Source: a virus
Taxonomy: Duplodnaviria > Heunggongvirae > Uroviricota > Caudoviricetes
Virus record (IMG/VR): IMGVR_UViG_2671180439_000005
Strand: one strand, 5' to 3'
DNA: 33,721 nucleotides
Made by a program: the position numbers and the translations under genes. Position 1 is the first letter of the stretch. Each line of letters opens with the position of its first letter. This document shows positions 4,882 through 13,586 of this stretch, in pieces. The notes below the pieces were generated by a model, which was not told the origin of the DNA, did not search any database, and saw nothing but the letters and a program-made list of their open reading frames with translations.

Positions 4882-5400
4882 TCACAGGCCGATATTGCGG
4901 CGGTGTTGCTCCAGCCGGTCGGCGCCGTTCACCTTCTCAATCATGTTGATGGTGTCGATTTCGACCAGCTCCTTACCGTCCATCGTCAGCCGGAAATAGG
5001 TGCAGACCACGGAAATTTTCGACTCGGTGTCTTCTCCCTGTTTACCCTCGCCGGTGTCGATTTCTTTCTGACGTCCACGCATGACCACCTCGACGGCTAC
5101 CGTTTCGCCGGTATCGTCGCGCTGGTAAGAGCCTGCAAAACGAATCGGCACAGCATCCACACCGGTTGCGGCGTAAAGCTCCCAGATAACCGAATCCGGG
5201 AAGCCCCCGAGCGACCACTCCATTGACAGCGCATCGTCATCAAGGCCGAGGTCTACCGGTGCGCTTCCGTTCATCCCCGCACCGCGATAGTTTTCGAGTT
5301 TACGGGTCAGTTTTGGCAGCGTGACGGACTTTGCAACGCCCTGATAGCTGTAGCCGTTCAGAAAGACGTTCATTAACTTGAGTTTGCGCGGCATTGCCAT
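4882..5400 (-). CDS. FII: Tail tube protein gpFII (172 aa)
   Basis: Track ORF; sequence recognisable as P2 FII; same length as P2. Confidence 0.85.
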   Translation of the reverse strand: MAMPRKLKLMNVFLNGYSYQGVAKSVTLPKLTRKLENYRGAGMNGSAPVDLGLDDDALSMEWSLGGFPDSVIWELYAATGVDAVPIRFAGSYQRDDTGETVAVEVVMRGRQKEIDTGEGKQGEDTESKISVVCTYFRLTMDGKELVEIDTINMIEKVNGADRLEQHRRNIGL

Positions 5401-5412
5401 CGGTCAGGCTCC

Positions 5413-6603
5413 TTAATTGCTGTTAACCGAAGTGACCAGATTTGCCAGGTATTTATCGGTAATACGCTGGCGCAGGGTCAGGTTTTCGAGAGGAGGCACC
5501 GGTGTATAGTCGTAGTCGATATACAGTTTTCCGGCCTTGAGGGTTTCCGCATCATTGGATTCTTCGCTGAACCAGCAGGTCGCATCCACGATATAGCCGT
5601 TTGTTTTCAGCTCACGGAATTTGGCATTGATGCCGTCAACGATGTCGCGAATCAGCGTTGCGGTGATGGGCTTGTCCACCGCCCACATGTGCGCCTCAGC
5701 CATCGTGTCGGCCAGCACCTGCGCGGTGCGGGTGTAGTTTTCAAAGAGGAACAGCGGGTCATCAGAGCAGGTACGGTTACCCCAGAAGCGGAAACCGTCG
5801 CGGCGAATCAGCGTTGTGACGCCTGACTCGTTAAGCAGGTCAGCATCGGTGCCGGACTCCTGCAAATCCCAGAATACAGAGGCGCTGATGCCGGTAACAC
5901 CGTTCACCCCGACGTTGGACAGCGTTTTATGCCAGCCCTGCTCCTGGTCGATTTTAGCGCGCAGACCCAGCGCACGGGCGGTGGCATACGCGGTGGCGGT
6001 GGTACTGGTGACCGTATCCCATGCGAGGAAATCCGGCCAGATGACCATCAGCTCACGCTGGCTGAAATTCTGGCGGTAGGCTTTCACCTCGGAAATGGTC
6101 TTACATCCCCATGCGCTGATATACCCGAAAGCACGCAGCTTCTGACAGACTGATGCCAGTGCAACAGCCACCTCTTTGGTATCCAGTCCCGGCACGCCGA
6201 GAATACGCGGTTTTACACCGGTTACCGACTCCGCCGCCAGCAGGGCTTTCAGTCCGGTGTACTGACCGTTTTCGTCGGTGGTGCCGATGATATTGGAAAC
6301 GGTCTGCGCGAGTTTCGTTTCTTCGTCTTCGCCGGTGCCGTCTTCCACACGCACGACAACGGTGACCGGTTTTGACTGGTCGGCGATGGCCTGTAACGAT
6401 GCCGCCAGCGTGCCTTTTTTACCGGCCTTCGCAATTGCGCTCTGCACATTGGTAATCAGCACCGGTTTATTGAGGGGGAAGGTTTCCGCATCTGCATCGC
6501 TGGCCGTGCAGACCATGCCGACAATGGCCGTGGATACGGTGGAAATGACGCGGGTGCCGTCGTTAATCTCCAGCACCTGCACGCCATGATGATAGTCACT
6601 CAT
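5413..6603 (-). CDS. FI: Contractile tail sheath protein gpFI (396 aa)
   Basis: Track ORF; sequence recognisable as P2 FI; same length as P2. Confidence 0.85.
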   Translation of the reverse strand: MSDYHHGVQVLEINDGTRVISTVSTAIVGMVCTASDADAETFPLNKPVLITNVQSAIAKAGKKGTLAASLQAIADQSKPVTVVVRVEDGTGEDEETKLAQTVSNIIGTTDENGQYTGLKALLAAESVTGVKPRILGVPGLDTKEVAVALASVCQKLRAFGYISAWGCKTISEVKAYRQNFSQRELMVIWPDFLAWDTVTSTTATAYATARALGLRAKIDQEQGWHKTLSNVGVNGVTGISASVFWDLQESGTDADLLNESGVTTLIRRDGFRFWGNRTCSDDPLFLFENYTRTAQVLADTMAEAHMWAVDKPITATLIRDIVDGINAKFRELKTNGYIVDATCWFSEESNDAETLKAGKLYIDYDYTPVPPLENLTLRQRITDKYLANLVTSVNSN

Positions 6604-6863
6604 CCGTTTAACTCCGTGGTTAATGGGTGCAACTATTTTCTGTTGGGCAGTGCATGAGACGCTATTTGACCTGGCTGGTCAGTGGATGAAACAACAGATA
6701 AAGAAAAGGCGGGCAATCAGCTTGCCTGCCTTGATTTGTACTCTCTCTGTTTCCAACTGACAAATTACGTAACCAAAATTCTGTCAAATCTGACAGCCTG
6801 TTTTGAGCGAAGAGCGGACCTGAGATTGTGGTATGCTAATTTATGGGGAGCAGGTCAATTGTA

Positions 6864-7556
6864 TTAGTTATCTTTTTGCTTTTCTTTATCCCATTTCTTT
6901 GCAGTGGTCTGATACCACTCTTCACGTGCTCGTTGTTCCTCGGCTCTGTCACTTGAATTATAGTTGTCTGTTTTAATTTTTTTGCTTCCCTGGGAAATCG
7001 GCCTCCAGTCTTCTCTAATCTTTTTCATCTGCTCAGCTATCTGTGTCATTGGACTCCTTGCACCTAAGTAGCTAACCCCCTCGAAAGAAGCCATATCATA
7101 AGAATACTCATTCCGCTCTCTTTCAGTTGAGCCCGGCTGTTTAGACCAGCTAATACTAACAGAATAAACTTGATCTTTAATCTGGTCATACTTACAAAGA
7201 CTGCTGTTAAGGGAATGGCCGTTTTTCAATACGCTAACCTTGCTAAATGGTATACCTTCATTTTTTCTATGTTCTGCATTAACCAGTGGGGGATTAAATC
7301 CGACTTCAATATCATAGGCTGGGGCATTTCCGGTATTAGCAATATTGATATCAAAATAAAAAGCAGCCCAAGAATTTGGTTCAAGAGTCACAACGACATG
7401 AGGTTGAACTGATGCGTCAACCATCCTTTTTGTCTCGTCTGCTAATAGCCTTGTTACTCTCCACAAGAAAAATGTAGCAACTGCTGTTAGCAATGCTGCC
7501 AAAGCTGAGATAAGTGTACTTACTGTGTTTATATGCTCTGCGATAAATTCGATCAT
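6864..7556 (-). CDS. Hypothetical protein, 230 aa, single N-terminal TM anchor, Lys/Glu-rich C-terminus (cargo)
   Basis: Track ORF with ATG start and AGGA RBS 6 nt upstream; hydrophobic segment INTVSTLISALAALLTAVATFFLW; AT-rich; no P2 counterpart known to me. Confidence 0.55.
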   Translation of the reverse strand: MIEFIAEHINTVSTLISALAALLTAVATFFLWRVTRLLADETKRMVDASVQPHVVVTLEPNSWAAFYFDINIANTGNAPAYDIEVGFNPPLVNAEHRKNEGIPFSKVSVLKNGHSLNSSLCKYDQIKDQVYSVSISWSKQPGSTERERNEYSYDMASFEGVSYLGARSPMTQIAEQMKKIREDWRPISQGSKKIKTDNYNSSDRAEEQRAREEWYQTTAKKWDKEKQKDN

Positions 7557-8047
7557 AAGTTGTCCTTGGGGGCGTACTAATTGTTTTCAATACTAAAATA
7601 ACGCCGGGCTTGAAAAATTGCACACTTATGGTTCGATTTACCTCAACAGTTAAGGCTTCAACTTCCCCCATGCACCTCACCCAGCCCAAGACTGTATGAG
7701 GTCTGACAAAGAACTTCCTGACACTTGAAAACGAGGCAACGGCTAGGGTTTCTCGTAGGGCAAGGATTGAATACGAAGCCTGTATATTGCTCCGCGAACG
7801 CTGCTGAGGGCAGTTTAAATGTTGGGCGTTTATGTAGCCTTTCACTCACCAGCATGAGTTCAATGTCTGTGAGTTACCGACAACAATATAAAGGGGGTGA
7901 CATCATCATATATCCAAGCTAGAGTCAAATCCTATAACTGGTTTTATGATCAGTGTCAATTGTTTGATTATTGAACGTTTACGAAGCAGCACGGGAGCCA
8001 TATAACTAATGGGCAGGTATAAGCCTGTATCACGAGGAATCAGTAAA

Positions 8048-8227
8048 ATGGCTGATGATAAGACCAAAATCGGTACCCCTGACAATGATTTAATAAGTAT
8101 CAAACAGGATTACGAGAGACGTGATTGGGCTGAAAAGTTTGGAGTTAGCGAGGCCAAACTTGTTCAAGCCGTACAGGCTGTAGGTCATTCGGCTAAGAAA
8201 GTACAGGCATGGCTTAAAGACCATTAA
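8048..8227 (+). CDS. DUF3606-like small protein (59 aa from MADDK; track ORF begins at 8009) (cargo)
   Basis: Pattern MADDKTKIG..DYERRDWAEKFGVSEAKLVQAVQAVGHSAKKVQAWL resembles DUF3606 members as I recall them; GAGGA 9 nt upstream of ATG 8048; hairpin plus T-run directly downstream. Confidence 0.5.
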   Translation: MADDKTKIGTPDNDLISIKQDYERRDWAEKFGVSEAKLVQAVQAVGHSAKKVQAWLKDH

Positions 8228-8233
8228 TATATG

Positions 8234-8260
8234 AGCGCCTTTCTAGGCGCTTTTTTCTTT
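8234..8260 (+). terminator. Rho-independent terminator or attenuator after the DUF3606 gene
   Basis: agcgcc-tttcta-ggcgct stem-loop followed by ttttttcttt. Confidence 0.55.
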
Positions 8261-8279
8261 GTCCTTTGGGAGATGATTT

Positions 8280-8558
8280 ATGGCTAATAATTTATTTATT
8301 ACTTACGACCTCATTAAAACGAAAGATTATGCGGCTGTGTATGATGCAATTAAATCTTTAGGAAATTGGGCTTTAACAACTGAATCGAACTGGTATGTTA
8401 ACTGTAGTTACTCTGCCGAGGATGCAGCCAAAATTGTGAGGGCGGTCATGGATAGTGATGATAAGCTTATTGTTGTAGACGCAACCAATAACTCAGCTTA
8501 TTGGTACAATCTCTCAGATGAAGTTAGTAACCAAATTCTGACTGAGTGGAACAAGTAA
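8280..8558 (+). CDS. Hypothetical protein, 92 aa (cargo)
   Basis: Track ORF with ATG and GGGAG RBS 7 nt upstream; followed by a strong GC-stem terminator; no family recognised. Confidence 0.5.
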   Translation: MANNLFITYDLIKTKDYAAVYDAIKSLGNWALTTESNWYVNCSYSAEDAAKIVRAVMDSDDKLIVVDATNNSAYWYNLSDEVSNQILTEWNK

Positions 8559-8587
8559 TTAAAGGGGGTGGGTACCCCCCTTTAATT
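8557..8587. terminator. Bidirectional rho-independent terminator between convergent cargo genes
   Basis: aattaaaggggg-tgggtac-ccccctttaatt inverted repeat with U-rich flank on both strands. Confidence 0.6.
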
Positions 8588-9032
8588 CAGAAACTATCAT
8601 GATTGAAACATTAAATATACTGGGTTAATTCTTTCATCCTTGCTCCCTTGCTATATGTCCTGAAAGCGTCCTTTTTAGCCTTCTGCTCAGTATGTCCGGT
8701 AATGGCACGCAGCGGACATTGCTGGCTGAGTTGAGGGTCCGCTGTGAGCGAGGAGCGGAAGTTCAAAATTTTTCATAACGACTGATGAGAACAACACTAA
8801 TTTTCGAACTTACTGGTACAAAAAATTTCCATAATCTTATAAAAAGTGGGGGAGTCAGTATGGTTCAATATTTGAAATACTACTTGTTTATGTTGAGAAA
8901 ATTTTAAGCTTGACCTGGTTACCAGATTACAGCCGATCAACACCTAGACATCGAAACTTAGAGGTACCTCTGCTTTCAGGCATACTTAGAGGTCTATGTC
9001 TAAACCACCCGCTATGCAGGTGGTTGATTTAC

Positions 9033-10568
9033 CTAATTCGGCCTTGCTTGAATAGCAGACTCTATAGCTGCTCGGAATTCCGGGGCATCAGCTCTTAATC
9101 GATAATCATCAAGGGTATTGAATATTTCTAGAAGTTCTCTACGATAATGCGGCGGTGCTGAATTACCTTCGCCTCTAGTGGTGAAAATTAATAATGAGTC
9201 AGCGACGTCTTTTAATTTTTTATTCCTTTTCAATCTAATATAACAAGATACAACTATATCAAGAATATGTTTTCTAGATTTCAAGGTGAGTTTTTTATTA
9301 GGCATAACCAACTGCAGCATAGCACCAAGTAATTTGGTAGCCTCTTTTGAAATATAATGAAGATCGAAATTATCTATTTCTTTATTTTCTTGAGGAATCT
9401 CCTTTTCATCTATCCATTCGCATTGTTCTGCCCAATCTGTAGCGACGCTAAATAAATGACAGAGAAGGAAGTGAAAAGGTGTTTCCCATTCACCACTATA
9501 TTCATCCGATTGCCTATTCATATTCTTTATAATTTTCCTTGCAAAATATGAATAGTAATGCAACCATAAATGATACTGAAGACCCTGGTGAATACCTTCA
9601 TGAACCATAATTTCAAACAGCGTGACACCTGAGTAAATAGGACATTTATATTTTGAAGCATCGTAATAGGAACCTAAAGACTTATTAAGTGCAGCAATAA
9701 TTTTTTCATCTTCATCTAACCTCCAGTAGAGATAGTCACCGATATCACGGTATATTGCTAAATCAGCTGCAAACTTAGCATTGGAAAAGAAAAAATGTAA
9801 TATACGGTTGTTTTTTGGAATCAATAAACGATGTCCTCGACTAACGTTAAGATTATTTTTAAGCTCAACATATAGACGACTGTTAGGTGAACCAAGTAAT
9901 GCACTGATAAAATTAGAAGTAAAGTCAGAACGAACTATTGGCTCGATCTTGATTAACTCAAGGCAGAGGGATGGGTGCGCAAGTGCAAAGTGATTGGTAA
10001 GTTCAGGTGATGAGACAATATTTAACAATGCTTCATGTGCATGTTCAGCAGCTGTCTCGCGATTAGAGATGCGGAGATTGTTAGCTATCTTATCACAAAG
10101 TCGATTCTTCACAGGTCTATCAATTATTGATATTAATTTTTCTAGTTGAGGTGCCAACAATTGTGCCAGATCGTCGTATCGTTTAGTAAGGTGCAAATTT
10201 TCCACTAACTCTAGAAATATCCCTGTTCTTCCAATTGAGAGTTTAGGGTTTTTTAAGCGAAATAAAATGTAAATAGCAACTGCGAGTGATATCAGGTATA
10301 CGGCACTTGAACTATCTAATCCCCATTTCCAGGGGCCAAAGCTAAAATATAAGTCTAGTGATTTTAAAGCCGGTGCAAACACCAAATAATTGCTTAGTAA
10401 GAATGCAAACCCAACAATTACCCAATCCCACCACGCTAGGCAGAACCTTAAACGTAGTCGAGCGTTTGGCGTAATAAGGGCCCATACAGCAGCAATAACG
10501 CCCAATATGGTAAGTAGACTTGATGTATCAATTTTGGTTGGCGGTGTCATAATTTCTCTTGTAATCAT
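9033..10568 (-). CDS. Hypothetical membrane protein, 511 aa, three N-terminal TM helices plus large helical soluble domain (cargo)
   Basis: Track ORF with ATG start; hydrophobic segments at about aa 17-32, 42-64 and 86-103; about 35% GC; alternative start at Met7; no family recognised. Confidence 0.6.
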   Translation of the reverse strand: MITREIMTPPTKIDTSSLLTILGVIAAVWALITPNARLRLRFCLAWWDWVIVGFAFLLSNYLVFAPALKSLDLYFSFGPWKWGLDSSSAVYLISLAVAIYILFRLKNPKLSIGRTGIFLELVENLHLTKRYDDLAQLLAPQLEKLISIIDRPVKNRLCDKIANNLRISNRETAAEHAHEALLNIVSSPELTNHFALAHPSLCLELIKIEPIVRSDFTSNFISALLGSPNSRLYVELKNNLNVSRGHRLLIPKNNRILHFFFSNAKFAADLAIYRDIGDYLYWRLDEDEKIIAALNKSLGSYYDASKYKCPIYSGVTLFEIMVHEGIHQGLQYHLWLHYYSYFARKIIKNMNRQSDEYSGEWETPFHFLLCHLFSVATDWAEQCEWIDEKEIPQENKEIDNFDLHYISKEATKLLGAMLQLVMPNKKLTLKSRKHILDIVVSCYIRLKRNKKLKDVADSLLIFTTRGEGNSAPPHYRRELLEIFNTLDDYRLRADAPEFRAAIESAIQARPN

Positions 10569-10925
10569 TGTTTGATGTACATCGGAATGGTTTCAAATGA
10601 TAAGGCTCTGTGTATGATAAATCAGAACGTTATGCACGTTTAAGAATACCCTCAAAATGGCACATTTTAATCTAAAAATGGCATTAAATGGACACTACTT
10701 GTCCACACAAGTTTTTTTTCAGTCGGCTTTTCCCGACTAACGTTTGGGGTGTCCTATTGAAACTACGCTCCTTATAAAAGCAATACTGTAGCTGTATGTT
10801 TATCAAAGGGGTTGTGCTAACCAAATTACTGAAGCCTAAGGTCCGCTCTTGGCACAGAGCGGACTGTCAGATTAGGCTTTACTCTGTGCCATAGATATGT
10901 AATCTCACACCAGAGCTTATACAAC

Positions 10926-11453
10926 TTATTGCGGCATTTCCGGCCATTCAGGATTTGCAGGATCCACACGACTGACCAGAACGCTGTAGCGTTCCCAGAT
11001 CTCCAGCCGTGTGCGCTCCTCATCTGTTGCCATGTTCAGTCTGACCGCGCGCTCCAGCGGCAAAATCACGGATTCAGCATCTGCTAGAAGTCTGGCTTTC
11101 CGATTTTCTGCCTGCTGCTGCAATTCCTCCGCCGTATAAATTCGTTTAATCACTGTGCCGTCCTTAAACATCCAGTTCCCTGAAATGTCCGCCCGTCGGT
11201 TAGCGGTAATATCCGGCACTTCAACAACACTTAATCCATCTGGTCTGATAGCTGTCACATCCTTTTCCACATAGCGGATAATATTATCTTTGTCGTACGC
11301 TATTTTTATCGTGTCATCAGCAAAATACTTTTGTTCTTCGTACCAGTTCTTACCATCTTCTGAAAAAAACCAGACAACATCAAAACCCTTTGTCAATTGA
11401 TATTGTTCAACCGTTTTTGGATTACCCGCCGTAATATTTTTTAAATGCTGCAT
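10926..11453 (-). CDS. G: Tail fibre assembly protein gpG (175 aa)
   Basis: Track ORF; recognisable as P2 gpG; directly downstream of H. Confidence 0.8.
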
Positions 11454-11456
11454 AAA

Positions 11457-13586
11457 TTATACCTGTGCCACGTTATACCATGTCCCGTTAATGTATTTCT
11501 GAACCGGTCTGTAATATACGCCACCAATGTTATCGGCAGAGTTTGAGCCGGTATCCTGAACAATAATGCCGGAATATATACACCCGGACGGTGCCTGATG
11601 TGTCCATGTCATGCCATTGTTCGCAGGTTTGTATGTGGCAGCACCACCAAGCCGGATATCCCGGACATAGCGGGAATCAAAGTTACCGTAATCTGTGGGA
11701 TTAACACGCCCCGTAATATTTATGGTTTTATTACTTTGAATGCTACCGGAGACAAAGCGCATAACATGGACGTTATTAGCATAAACATCCAGATTACCGT
11801 CGCCATTTTGTTTAAAGCCCGTGTCATTATCACCCAAAACAATCGAGTTACCGCCAAGAGCACTGGATGTACCGATGCCCAGTGCACCATTCAATTGACC
11901 TCCAGATAATGATAACGCCCCAACATCAGCAGCAGTCGGTTTAATGTGCGAACTGTAAATTACATATACAGTTCCATCTGTCAGGCCTGTTGGTTTATTC
12001 GCTGTATAAGTTGGTGATGTATGAATCGTTACGCTGGCGTTACTGGTATAATCCCACTGAATATTAACACCTGTGGCGTAATTACCTATTTCAACATAAA
12101 CATCATAGGTATCACCGGATGTATTCACCCATGCAAAATTAGTAAATCCAACCGATGTCCGTCGCCATAACGCACCAGTAAGACCTTTTGGATTTCTATT
12201 CCCCGCACGAAGAACAAGTTCAGATATACCAGCCTGCATAGGGGAGTTAACATTATATCCGGCACCACCAATCAGACTTATGTAAACCACGGAACTGGCC
12301 TGTGGCATGGTTACAGTTGCCAGCCTGAACCATCCTGTACCACCACTAAAAGACATGGTTGTTGAATTTGTTGCTCCAATATTGCGCAGGAATAATCTTT
12401 TATCAGGAATATCCGCGCCATTTTGATCTTTCTGAAGACGTTTTTCAGCATTGTCATAGGCAGACTTCACCGCTTTTGGTGTTGCGGCCAGCGTTTCCGA
12501 ATCACTGTTGGTGGCGCTACTGAGCTGAACAAGCCCTTTTCGCGCTGTGGTGGCATCCTGTGCAGTGTATTTCCCGTTAGCAAGGTCATACGCGACCTTT
12601 ACCGCCTTTGGCGTTGCCGCAAGCGTTTCAGAATCACTGTTGGTGGCGCTACTGAGCTGGACAAGGCCTTTTCTCGCTGTGGTGGCGTCCTGTGCAGTGT
12701 ATTTCCCGTTAGCAAGGTCATACGCGACCTTTACCGCCTTTGGCGTTGCGGCCAGCGTTTCAGAATCGCTGTTGGTGGCGCTACTGAGCTGAACAAGGCC
12801 TTTTCGCGCTGTGGTGGCGTCCTGTGCGGTATATTTCCCGTTAGCAAGGTCATATGCTGCTTTTACCGCTTTTGGTGTTGCAGCGAGCGTTTCAGACGTG
12901 CTGTTGGTGGCGCTACTGAGCTGGACAAGGCCTTTTCGTGCTGTGGTGGCGTCCTGTGCGGTATATTTCCCGTTAGCAAGGTCATATGCGGCCTTTACCG
13001 CCTTTGGCGTTGCAGCCAGTGTTTCAGACGTGCTGTTGGTCGCACTGCTTAACTGAGTAAAACCTTTTGCGGTCAGCGAGGCGTCCGGGTGACGTCGTGA
13101 CTGTTCATGTTCTGCAATTTTGTCATCAACGTAATCCTGCGTCGCCATCACCGTTGTGGTGTCAATGGTCAGCGCCACTGAGGTCACACTGCTGACGATG
13201 ATGACCATACGGCAGGTCTGCGAACGCCCTGAGCCTTCGGCAAGAGCTGGCTTATAACTTTCGGCCATGTTCGCCACAGCAATTAACGTTCCCGCATCAT
13301 CGTACAGGCCAAGCTCACGCATCCAGAAACCGCCCACCTCCGGCGGAATAACCAGCTCTGCGATAATATAATTACTGTTTCGTTTGTCCTGGCTGATTTT
13401 GTTCAGCGCATGTCGCCAGACTTCGTGGATAAGCCCGGTCTGTCCGGCATCCGGGACAGGCAATTTACCACCGCCATCCCCGACGGCCATCGTGGTAATG
13501 TTGACCTTCCGCCCTCCCGGTGCGGTTGCCGCTGCCAGCTTTGCTGCACCGGCAGTGGTGATAACGGTTCTGAATTTTGTGCTCAT
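11457..13586 (-). CDS. H: Tail fibre protein gpH (709 aa) with internal tandem fibre repeats
   Basis: Track ORF; N-terminus matches P2 H; five copies of a 44-aa repeat KGLVQLSSATNS(T/D)SETLAATPKAVKxAYDLANGKYTAQDATTAR. Confidence 0.85.
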   Translation of the reverse strand: MSTKFRTVITTAGAAKLAAATAPGGRKVNITTMAVGDGGGKLPVPDAGQTGLIHEVWRHALNKISQDKRNSNYIIAELVIPPEVGGFWMRELGLYDDAGTLIAVANMAESYKPALAEGSGRSQTCRMVIIVSSVTSVALTIDTTTVMATQDYVDDKIAEHEQSRRHPDASLTAKGFTQLSSATNSTSETLAATPKAVKAAYDLANGKYTAQDATTARKGLVQLSSATNSTSETLAATPKAVKAAYDLANGKYTAQDATTARKGLVQLSSATNSDSETLAATPKAVKVAYDLANGKYTAQDATTARKGLVQLSSATNSDSETLAATPKAVKVAYDLANGKYTAQDATTARKGLVQLSSATNSDSETLAATPKAVKSAYDNAEKRLQKDQNGADIPDKRLFLRNIGATNSTTMSFSGGTGWFRLATVTMPQASSVVYISLIGGAGYNVNSPMQAGISELVLRAGNRNPKGLTGALWRRTSVGFTNFAWVNTSGDTYDVYVEIGNYATGVNIQWDYTSNASVTIHTSPTYTANKPTGLTDGTVYVIYSSHIKPTAADVGALSLSGGQLNGALGIGTSSALGGNSIVLGDNDTGFKQNGDGNLDVYANNVHVMRFVSGSIQSNKTINITGRVNPTDYGNFDSRYVRDIRLGGAATYKPANNGMTWTHQAPSGCIYSGIIVQDTGSNSADNIGGVYYRPVQKYINGTWYNVAQV
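12456..13067 (-). repeat. In-frame tandem repeat, 132-bp unit, about 4.6 copies, inside tail fibre gene H
   Basis: Near-identical 132-nt units visible in the DNA; plus-strand track ORFs 12547..12792 and 12811..13056 are mirror artefacts of the repeat. Confidence 0.8.

Follow-up and report, generated by a model that had tools for sequence, protein, structure and literature searches.

A small membrane-anchored protein encoded in the fun(Z) variable site of a P2-like prophage, a candidate stand-alone anti-phage factor

The window analyzed here, a stretch of 33,721 nucleotides from a member of the Caudoviricetes (IMG/VR record IMGVR_UViG_2671180439_000005), represents a P2-like prophage in which FII (4882-5400), the tail sheath gene FI (5413-6603), the tail-fibre assembly gene G (10926-11453) and H (11457-13586) are all located on the minus strand. 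Between G and FI resides an island of about 4 kb with a GC content of 32-43%, compared to 53-60% in the flanks. In a blastn comparison, homology to P2 ends at position 6818 and resumes at 10837, which places the island at 6819-10836, and these limits coincide with an imperfect inverted repeat whose 38-nt arms are located at 6787-6824 (right border, annotated as 'right inverted repeat' in the record AJ512682) and 10836-10873 (left border). The border element has a third, degenerate copy at 8725-8765, where two cassettes meet, and its core GGTCCGCT is restricted to three places in the window, 6813-6820, 8736-8743 and 10840-10847. The border element contains a palindrome; the middle and left copies are in direct orientation and the right copy is inverted. 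The first cassette, which carries the gene studied here (ORF230), a DUF3606 gene and a gene for a 92-aa protein, is included in a 99.7% match of window positions 6500-8717 to E. coli NCTC9008. Positions 8691-11081, which cover part of a second cassette with a gene for a 511-aa protein, match strain LR-71-1 at 98.3%. The composite of both cassettes is absent from 5426 complete E. coli genomes and from 50,697 phage records. The arrangement suggests that cassettes are stacked by recombination at copies of the border element.

ORF230 extends from 6864 to 7556, starts with ATG and encodes 230 amino acids, as described in an earlier note on this DNA that was made from the letters alone; the strand, which had been left unstated, is the minus strand. 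The good ribosome-binding site claimed in that note is present as the Shine-Dalgarno sequence AAGGA, 6 nt upstream of the start codon (7563-7567, minus strand), and an RBS is annotated at the equivalent place in the record of P2-EC53. ORF230 is a real gene: a word-indexed search returned 234 homologues and a profile search 1798 cluster representatives, and the exact sequence is present on 413 E. coli contigs. Residues 1-230 align with positions 1-230 of the 230-position profile of PHROG 11802 (E=1.4e-146), a family of unknown function. Another ORF of 142 aa at 7417-7845 was rejected as a gene, being without any family match. The direction of transcription towards FI is as the earlier note had it, since both genes are on the minus strand. 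The same note placed ORF230 immediately upstream of FI; FI does follow 260 bp downstream, but the gap holds a border repeat, a terminator-like hairpin and the P_F activator site.

Hydropathy and an AlphaFold2 model both agree with the previously proposed architecture of a single N-terminal transmembrane anchor, a 'probably beta-rich' middle and a charged C-terminus, and the C-terminal peptide quoted in that proposal, EEQRAREEWYQTTAKKWDKEKQKDN, is correct. ORF230 is a single-pass membrane protein in which residues 12-32 (codons at 7461-7523) form the sole hydrophobic segment (Kyte-Doolittle 19-residue mean 2.05) and no second one occurs. The model, built from 52 homologues with a mean pLDDT of 85.8, starts with a helix that spans residues 2-49, followed by seven strands between residues 54 and 154 and two further helices at 169-188 and 201-229. 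The strands are predicted to form an Ig-like beta-sandwich (codons 54-154; 7095-7397) with the motifs EPNxW, NTGNAxA and FxPPL among its invariant columns. Structure comparison of the modeled sandwich returned generic matches only, all of them to binding modules and none to a catalytic fold, and no solved-structure relative was informative on the function of ORF230. The C-terminal helix (codons 201-230; 6867-6956) is rich in Lys, Glu and Arg in the model and the alignment; it is charged in all homologues, while its sequence is poorly conserved (0.37).

Conservation reaches 0.65 in the transmembrane helix, 0.76 in the juxtamembrane helix (residues 33-50) and 0.64 in the sandwich, and the residues T24, A25, A27, T28, L31, W32, R33, V34, T35, E41, T42 and R44 are near-invariant among the homologues. 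Judged by the alignment, the membrane and juxtamembrane part is at least as conserved as the globular domain, which is unusual for a mere anchor, and the near-invariance of its residues points to specific helix contacts. Over 50 homologues, the mean number of Lys and Arg residues is 0.36 in the N-terminal stub of about 10 residues versus 3.68 in the 15 residues past the helix, and by the positive-inside rule the bulk of ORF230 would be located in the cytoplasm.

Profile and structure searches, which the earlier note had proposed, were informative in part. They assigned ORF230 to phrog_11802 and to a family of 1798 clusters; they returned no relative with a function in Pfam, in PADLOC or among solved structures. 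Pfam and NCBIfam profile searches gave nothing above noise, and for exclusion families in these databases only chance matches were obtained (Phe_tRNA-synt_N, TMEM260-like, SecE and SLATT_4), all far below the cutoffs. Similarly, none of the families in PADLOC-DB 2.0 (5027 component models) matches at E<=1. DUF8453 is the RefSeq product name for some copies, namely a 98.7% identical one (H65) and a paralogue (H88); the name was seen only as a RefSeq product, and no DUF8453 match appeared in the local Pfam and NCBIfam profile searches.

The gap between ORF230 and FI bears on the earlier suggestion that expression of ORF230 could be coupled to, or interfere with, the late promoter P_F. A scan identified a terminator-like hairpin with a U tract at 6706-6732 on the minus strand (AAGGCAGGCAAGCUGAUUGCCCGCCUU followed by UUUCUUUAU; dG -14.5 kcal/mol), which belongs to the P2 backbone and is conserved in P2 (AF063097). 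The site that corresponds to the activator-binding site of P2 P_F, as obtained by aligning the P2 annotation to the window, is located at approximately 6671-6696 (minus strand). The hairpin lies directly upstream of this site, and in the P2 reference genome it is conserved but unannotated. As hairpin and U tract reside between the ORF230 stop codon and the activator site and are conserved in P2, read-through from ORF230 into P_F, and with it coupling or interference, would be unlikely. The hairpin may insulate P_F from transcription leaving the variable region.

On the upstream side, a search of the minus strand up to 340 nt from the ORF230 start codon revealed no consensus sigma-70 promoter. 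The -10 signal annotated in AJ512682 maps to 7885-7890 and would imply a putative leader of about 320 nt. A stretch about 80-140 nt upstream of the ATG is conserved with the Enterobacter and NCTC11023 copies, and the promoter may therefore lie in this stretch. Positions 7697-7774, also upstream of ORF230, share 83% identity with a sequence (L019, 38-115) that lies 7 kb from the homologue in Enterobacter, and have no Rfam match; a scan of 6500-11000 against Rfam at E<=1 yielded chance matches only, none of them in the 450-bp region upstream of ORF230. At the other end of the island, the stretch from G to the 511-aa gene (10569-10925) yielded no terminator-like site, and thus late transcription may read into the island. 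P2 itself has an annotated V-operon terminator after G.

The earlier note knew of no counterpart in P2. However, fun(Z) occupies exactly the same position in P2, and the same gene as ORF230 is present as ORF1 of P2-EC53. P2 Fun(Z) (AAD03288.1) shares with ORF230 the slot between G and P_F, the same backbone repeats and the status of a non-essential prophage accessory gene; according to the P2 annotation, fun(Z) is a lysogenic-conversion gene that blocks T5. The two differ in that Fun(Z) has 528 aa versus 230 aa and is encoded on the opposite strand. A relationship of ORF230 to Fun(Z) was rejected, as the best blastp match has E=1.7 over 25 residues. Within the 'proviral Z-region' of P2-EC53 (AJ512682), ORF1 is annotated as a 'putative lysogenic conversion protein' (CAD54906.1; 97.8% aa identity to ORF230), together with an RBS, a -10 signal and two border repeats. 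The viable phage R18C carries QDP43518.1 with 98.3% aa identity. Both represent the ORF230 gene (97.8-98.3% aa identity) with the same neighbors and the same border repeats, but they lack the second cassette of the window with the 511-aa gene. In the R18C paper, the genes at the fun(Z) location are only noted as morons of unknown function. ORF230 was thus already catalogued in 2004 and is a computationally predicted defence gene as of 2026. In the main-text literature, accessions of ORF230 copies, 'P2-EC53' and 'DUF8453' were found in no paper, and the gene does not occur in the supplements of Rousset 2022, a study devoted to the other P2 hotspot, which is flanked by gpA and gpQ. The locus between G and FI was described by Vassallo 2022 (PMC9519451) as the second defence-enriched site of P2-like phages, which holds fun and three validated systems. 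ORF230 represents a moron that this P2-like prophage has acquired horizontally and carries at its fun(Z) variable site.

Upstream of ORF230, and divergent from it, are located the DUF3606 gene (8009-8227, plus strand; PF12244, E=4e-18) and the gene for the 92-aa protein (phrog_1090; 8280-8558, plus strand). Both proteins are 100% identical to the NCTC9008 copies WP_001406733.1 and WP_000002748.1, and the 92-aa protein has weak Cas2-like matches (E 0.02-0.15). The unit 'RMRT', consisting of WP_001406733.1 and WP_000002748.1, was marked defensive and named DS-46 by DeWeirdt, Mahoney and Laub (2026; PMC13092281, Table S6), the DUF3606 gene and the 92-aa gene being its first and second gene; it was the sole protective unit among 24 low-scoring, homology-selected ones. 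The cloned unit covers 62985-63495 of NZ_RRVG01000021.1 with only 200 bp of upstream sequence, and the ORF230 orthologue on that contig is located at 61801-62493, 492 bp from DS-46, and thus outside the tested unit and its 200-bp margin. The gene is absent from the 118 tested units of Table S6 in this study. It is, however, contained in the predictions of the same study: WP_042002648.1, a protein of 230 aa encoded on the same contig as DS-46 in a strain of the ECOR collection, received a mean DefensePredictor log-odds of 6.99, above the cutoff of 4, and falls into the category 'Predicted novel defense gene' (Table S5, PMC13092281). Among its remote matches, drt1b of type I DRT ranks first, with an HHblits probability of 91 over 16% of the protein (PMC13092281). 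WP_042002648.1 resembles ORF230 in its 230 aa and in its distance of 492 bp to the DS-46 genes; the representative of its DefensePredictor cluster (WP_000227281.1 / WP_042002648.1), WP_000227281.1, is a P4-satellite copy and, unlike ORF230, has no transmembrane helix. By our own count, 12 units of Table S6 that scored 5.5-8.7 were defensive and 11 were non-defensive, and since 12 of these 23 units defended at similar scores, the prediction for ORF230 amounts to about one chance in two. Location, prediction and homologue contexts are not independent lines of evidence, as DefensePredictor may itself use genomic context.

The family is large and spread on mobile elements. An exhaustive profile search returned 1798 cluster representatives (50% identity clusters) at E<=1e-3, and the family spans alpha-, beta- and gamma-Proteobacteria. 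Almost all of the best 150 of the 1798 representatives have 100-250 aa (the longest 344 aa), and domain fusions do not occur among them. ORF230 is also autonomous from its neighbors: all-against-all ORF clustering of 72 loci from different species revealed no recurrent neighbor family. A neighbor cluster from 17 loci was rejected as an artefact of antisense ORFs overlapping the ORF230 homologue itself. Considering the 72 loci without a recurrent partner and the best 150 of 1798 representatives without fusions, the family most likely works alone.

With regard to the individual contexts, homologues adjoin an integrase in Xanthomonas and in Klebsiella, and an ICE of Pectobacterium has one in its cargo end. 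The homologue on a P4-like satellite of E. coli O26 is convergent with an AbiJ-NTD4 gene; in an Enterobacter island it adjoins AbiJ-NTD4 and a 191-aa resolvase; and in a Yersinia island it is located beside P4 cII-beta genes, gop-beta-cII being a validated defence system. In E. coli NCTC11023 the homologue adjoins a DUF3800 gene and a recombinase, and small serine recombinases are found beside several homologues. Small serine recombinases have been proposed as markers of defence genes, and a DUF3800 gene and small serine recombinases have been reported as such markers (PMC13552941). On a conjugative Pseudomonas megaplasmid the homologue is located beside a ParB-like gene, with DUF932 and DUF736 genes in the same region, and this ParB-like neighbor is present in 8 of the 72 species-level loci. 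A homologue in Sphingomonadaceae resides in a core-genome context without marks of mobile elements, and an SPbeta-like Bacillus phage carries a distant relative close to its lysogeny module. Among the E. coli paralogues, the commonest, WP_000227281.1, has 190 aa, occurs in about 460 complete genomes and is without a transmembrane helix; in a P4-like satellite of E. coli O26:H11 (L013, 6918-7490) it lies between an AbiJ-NTD4 gene and a frameshifted IS3. It is probably a decayed copy.

Several known systems have a similar layout. As in ORF230, one or more N-terminal transmembrane helices are followed by a small beta-rich domain in drt1b (type I DRT), in Cap15 of CBASS and in SLATT proteins. However, the drt1b and SLATT matches to ORF230 cover the hydrophobic helix only, the faint SLATT_4 match being restricted to residues 10-30 (E=0.49), and effectors of the drt1b, Cap15 and SLATT types are not among the PDB fold matches listed for ORF230. 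A partner enzyme such as a reverse transcriptase or a cyclase was never adjacent to the homologues in the loci examined. With respect to type I DRT in particular, ORF230 has no PADLOC DRT match, and a reverse transcriptase gene was not adjacent in any locus examined. T4 Imm and Sp, P22 SieA and SieB, lactococcal Sie2009 and HK97 gp15 share with ORF230 that they are small, prophage-encoded, membrane-anchored single-gene products, and they act in the lysogen, as ORF230 would. In contrast to this resemblance, ORF230 matches none of these superinfection-exclusion proteins in Pfam, PHROG function or NCBIfam. Known superinfection-exclusion proteins are usually narrow in range, which is also unlike the wide distribution of the ORF230 family across three classes of Proteobacteria.

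Which role might such a protein fulfill? Its position between the tail genes G and FI, co-directional with both, together with a conceivable late read-through from G into the island, might be taken to indicate a conserved, late-expressed tail or fibre accessory protein of P2-like phages, as which, according to the earlier note, ORF230 might yet turn out. This is extremely improbable: full-length ORF230 is present in 104 of the 5426 complete E. coli genomes, versus 1141 genomes that match this P2 region, and it is absent from P2 and most P2-like phages. The GC content at the gene is 38-43%, versus the distinctly higher values of the flanking tail genes, homologues occur in satellites, ICEs and chromosomal islets without tail genes, and PHROG assigns no structural category. 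Alternatively, ORF230 might be a functional third component of DS-46, acting as regulator, sensor or membrane effector of a three-gene cassette. In accordance with this, DS-46 is present in 102 of the complete E. coli genomes, compared to the 104 with ORF230 (about 99 each at >=95% identity), and the trio also occurs in R18C and P2-EC53 and even outside any P2 prophage in Pantoea leporis (L025, 4685-6684; 93-97% aa identity), where it is flanked by the budABC operon and an integrase remnant of 99 aa. In addition, ORF230 and the DS-46 genes are divergent and have the upstream region of 450 bp as common control region. However, DS-46 defended as two genes with 200 bp of upstream sequence, which excludes ORF230, and DUF3606 or 92-aa neighbors are never present at ORF230 homologues of <=70% identity. 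The co-occurrence is equally explained by a recently spread cassette bounded by border repeats, and we regard a third-component role as quite unlikely.

A function for the mobile element that is unrelated to phage defence has likewise to be considered, such as entry or surface exclusion, anti-defence or establishment, or modification of the host envelope in the sense of lysogenic conversion. The neighborhood to the ParB-like gene known from the conjugative Pseudomonas megaplasmid, the position of one homologue at the cargo end of an ICE and that of the distant relative near the SPbeta-like lysogeny module would be compatible with such a function, as would the predicted sandwich, a generic protein-binding module. 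On the other hand, the strongest recurrent associations of the family are those with defence hotspots and defence genes, and its occurrence on phages, satellites, ICEs and islets alike argues against a single transfer machinery. We consider a role of this kind unlikely.

The reading that we tentatively prefer, although we would place it slightly below an even chance, is that ORF230 is a stand-alone inner-membrane anti-phage protein acting in the lysogen. It is favored by the hotspot location, the DefensePredictor score, the contexts of the homologues, the autonomy, the conservation of the helix, the positive-inside rule and the binding-module character of the modeled sandwich. A lysogen gene possibly affecting heterologous phages had already been considered in the earlier note, and both the location in the fun(Z) defence hotspot and the machine-learning prediction are in line with this idea. 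As a mechanism, it might be hypothesized that the short acidic N-terminus faces the periplasm and that the conserved transmembrane and juxtamembrane helix anchors the protein and probably self-associates or docks on a conserved inner-membrane component. The Ig-like sandwich and the two C-terminal helices would then reside in the cytoplasm and bind a phage or host protein. A superinfecting phage would be blocked either at genome entry, i.e., by superinfection exclusion, or by membrane damage upon sensing of the infection, i.e., by abortive infection; given the wide spread of the family across hosts, the latter might be somewhat likelier.

Some observations argue against a role in defence. ORF230 is PADLOC-negative, and if PADLOC includes the systems of Vassallo 2022, it should have gone unrecovered in that selection. 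Further points are that no consensus promoter was found, that one homologue resides in a core-genome context, and that the commonest E. coli paralogue is without the helix and may be decaying. The Vassallo selection was reportedly carried out with T4, lambda-vir and T7, and the screen is said not to have been saturating.

If ORF230 does defend, it would add a very small, partner-free membrane family to the known anti-phage systems, with members on P2-like phages, P4-like satellites, ICEs and islets of many Proteobacteria. Going further, it might be speculated that the 1798 clusters represent a large, unrecognized family of one-polypeptide membrane immune proteins in Proteobacteria and possibly in SPbeta-like Bacillus phages, in which the cytoplasmic sandwich senses a phage component and the helix then oligomerizes, leading to depolarization or to a shutdown of DNA entry; we regard this wider proposal as rather doubtful. 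If it were true, sensor and effector would be combined within 230 residues, with no enzyme and no partner. As a candidate, ORF230 is short and easy to clone and comes with a published computational prediction; should it not defend, it would provide a calibrated false positive for defence prediction based on context and language models.

A defensive ORF230 would also complete the view of the island as independent defence cassettes stacked next to one another and linked through repeat elements. The second cassette encodes the 511-aa membrane protein (phrog_13820; 9033-10568, minus strand), which is not linked to ORF230 elsewhere and has no Pfam or PADLOC match; a relationship between the two proteins was rejected by sequence comparison. 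In phage vB_EcoM-12474III, a SMEK-domain protein is encoded under the match to the island region, its tie to DS-27, a validated SMEK-domain defence protein (Table S6, PMC13092281), being by domain only. In E. coli, the 511-aa gene has a 244-aa gene as its partner, which the window lacks, and copies of the 511-aa gene with 74-75% nucleotide identity are found on Klebsiella phage records of 110-120 kb.
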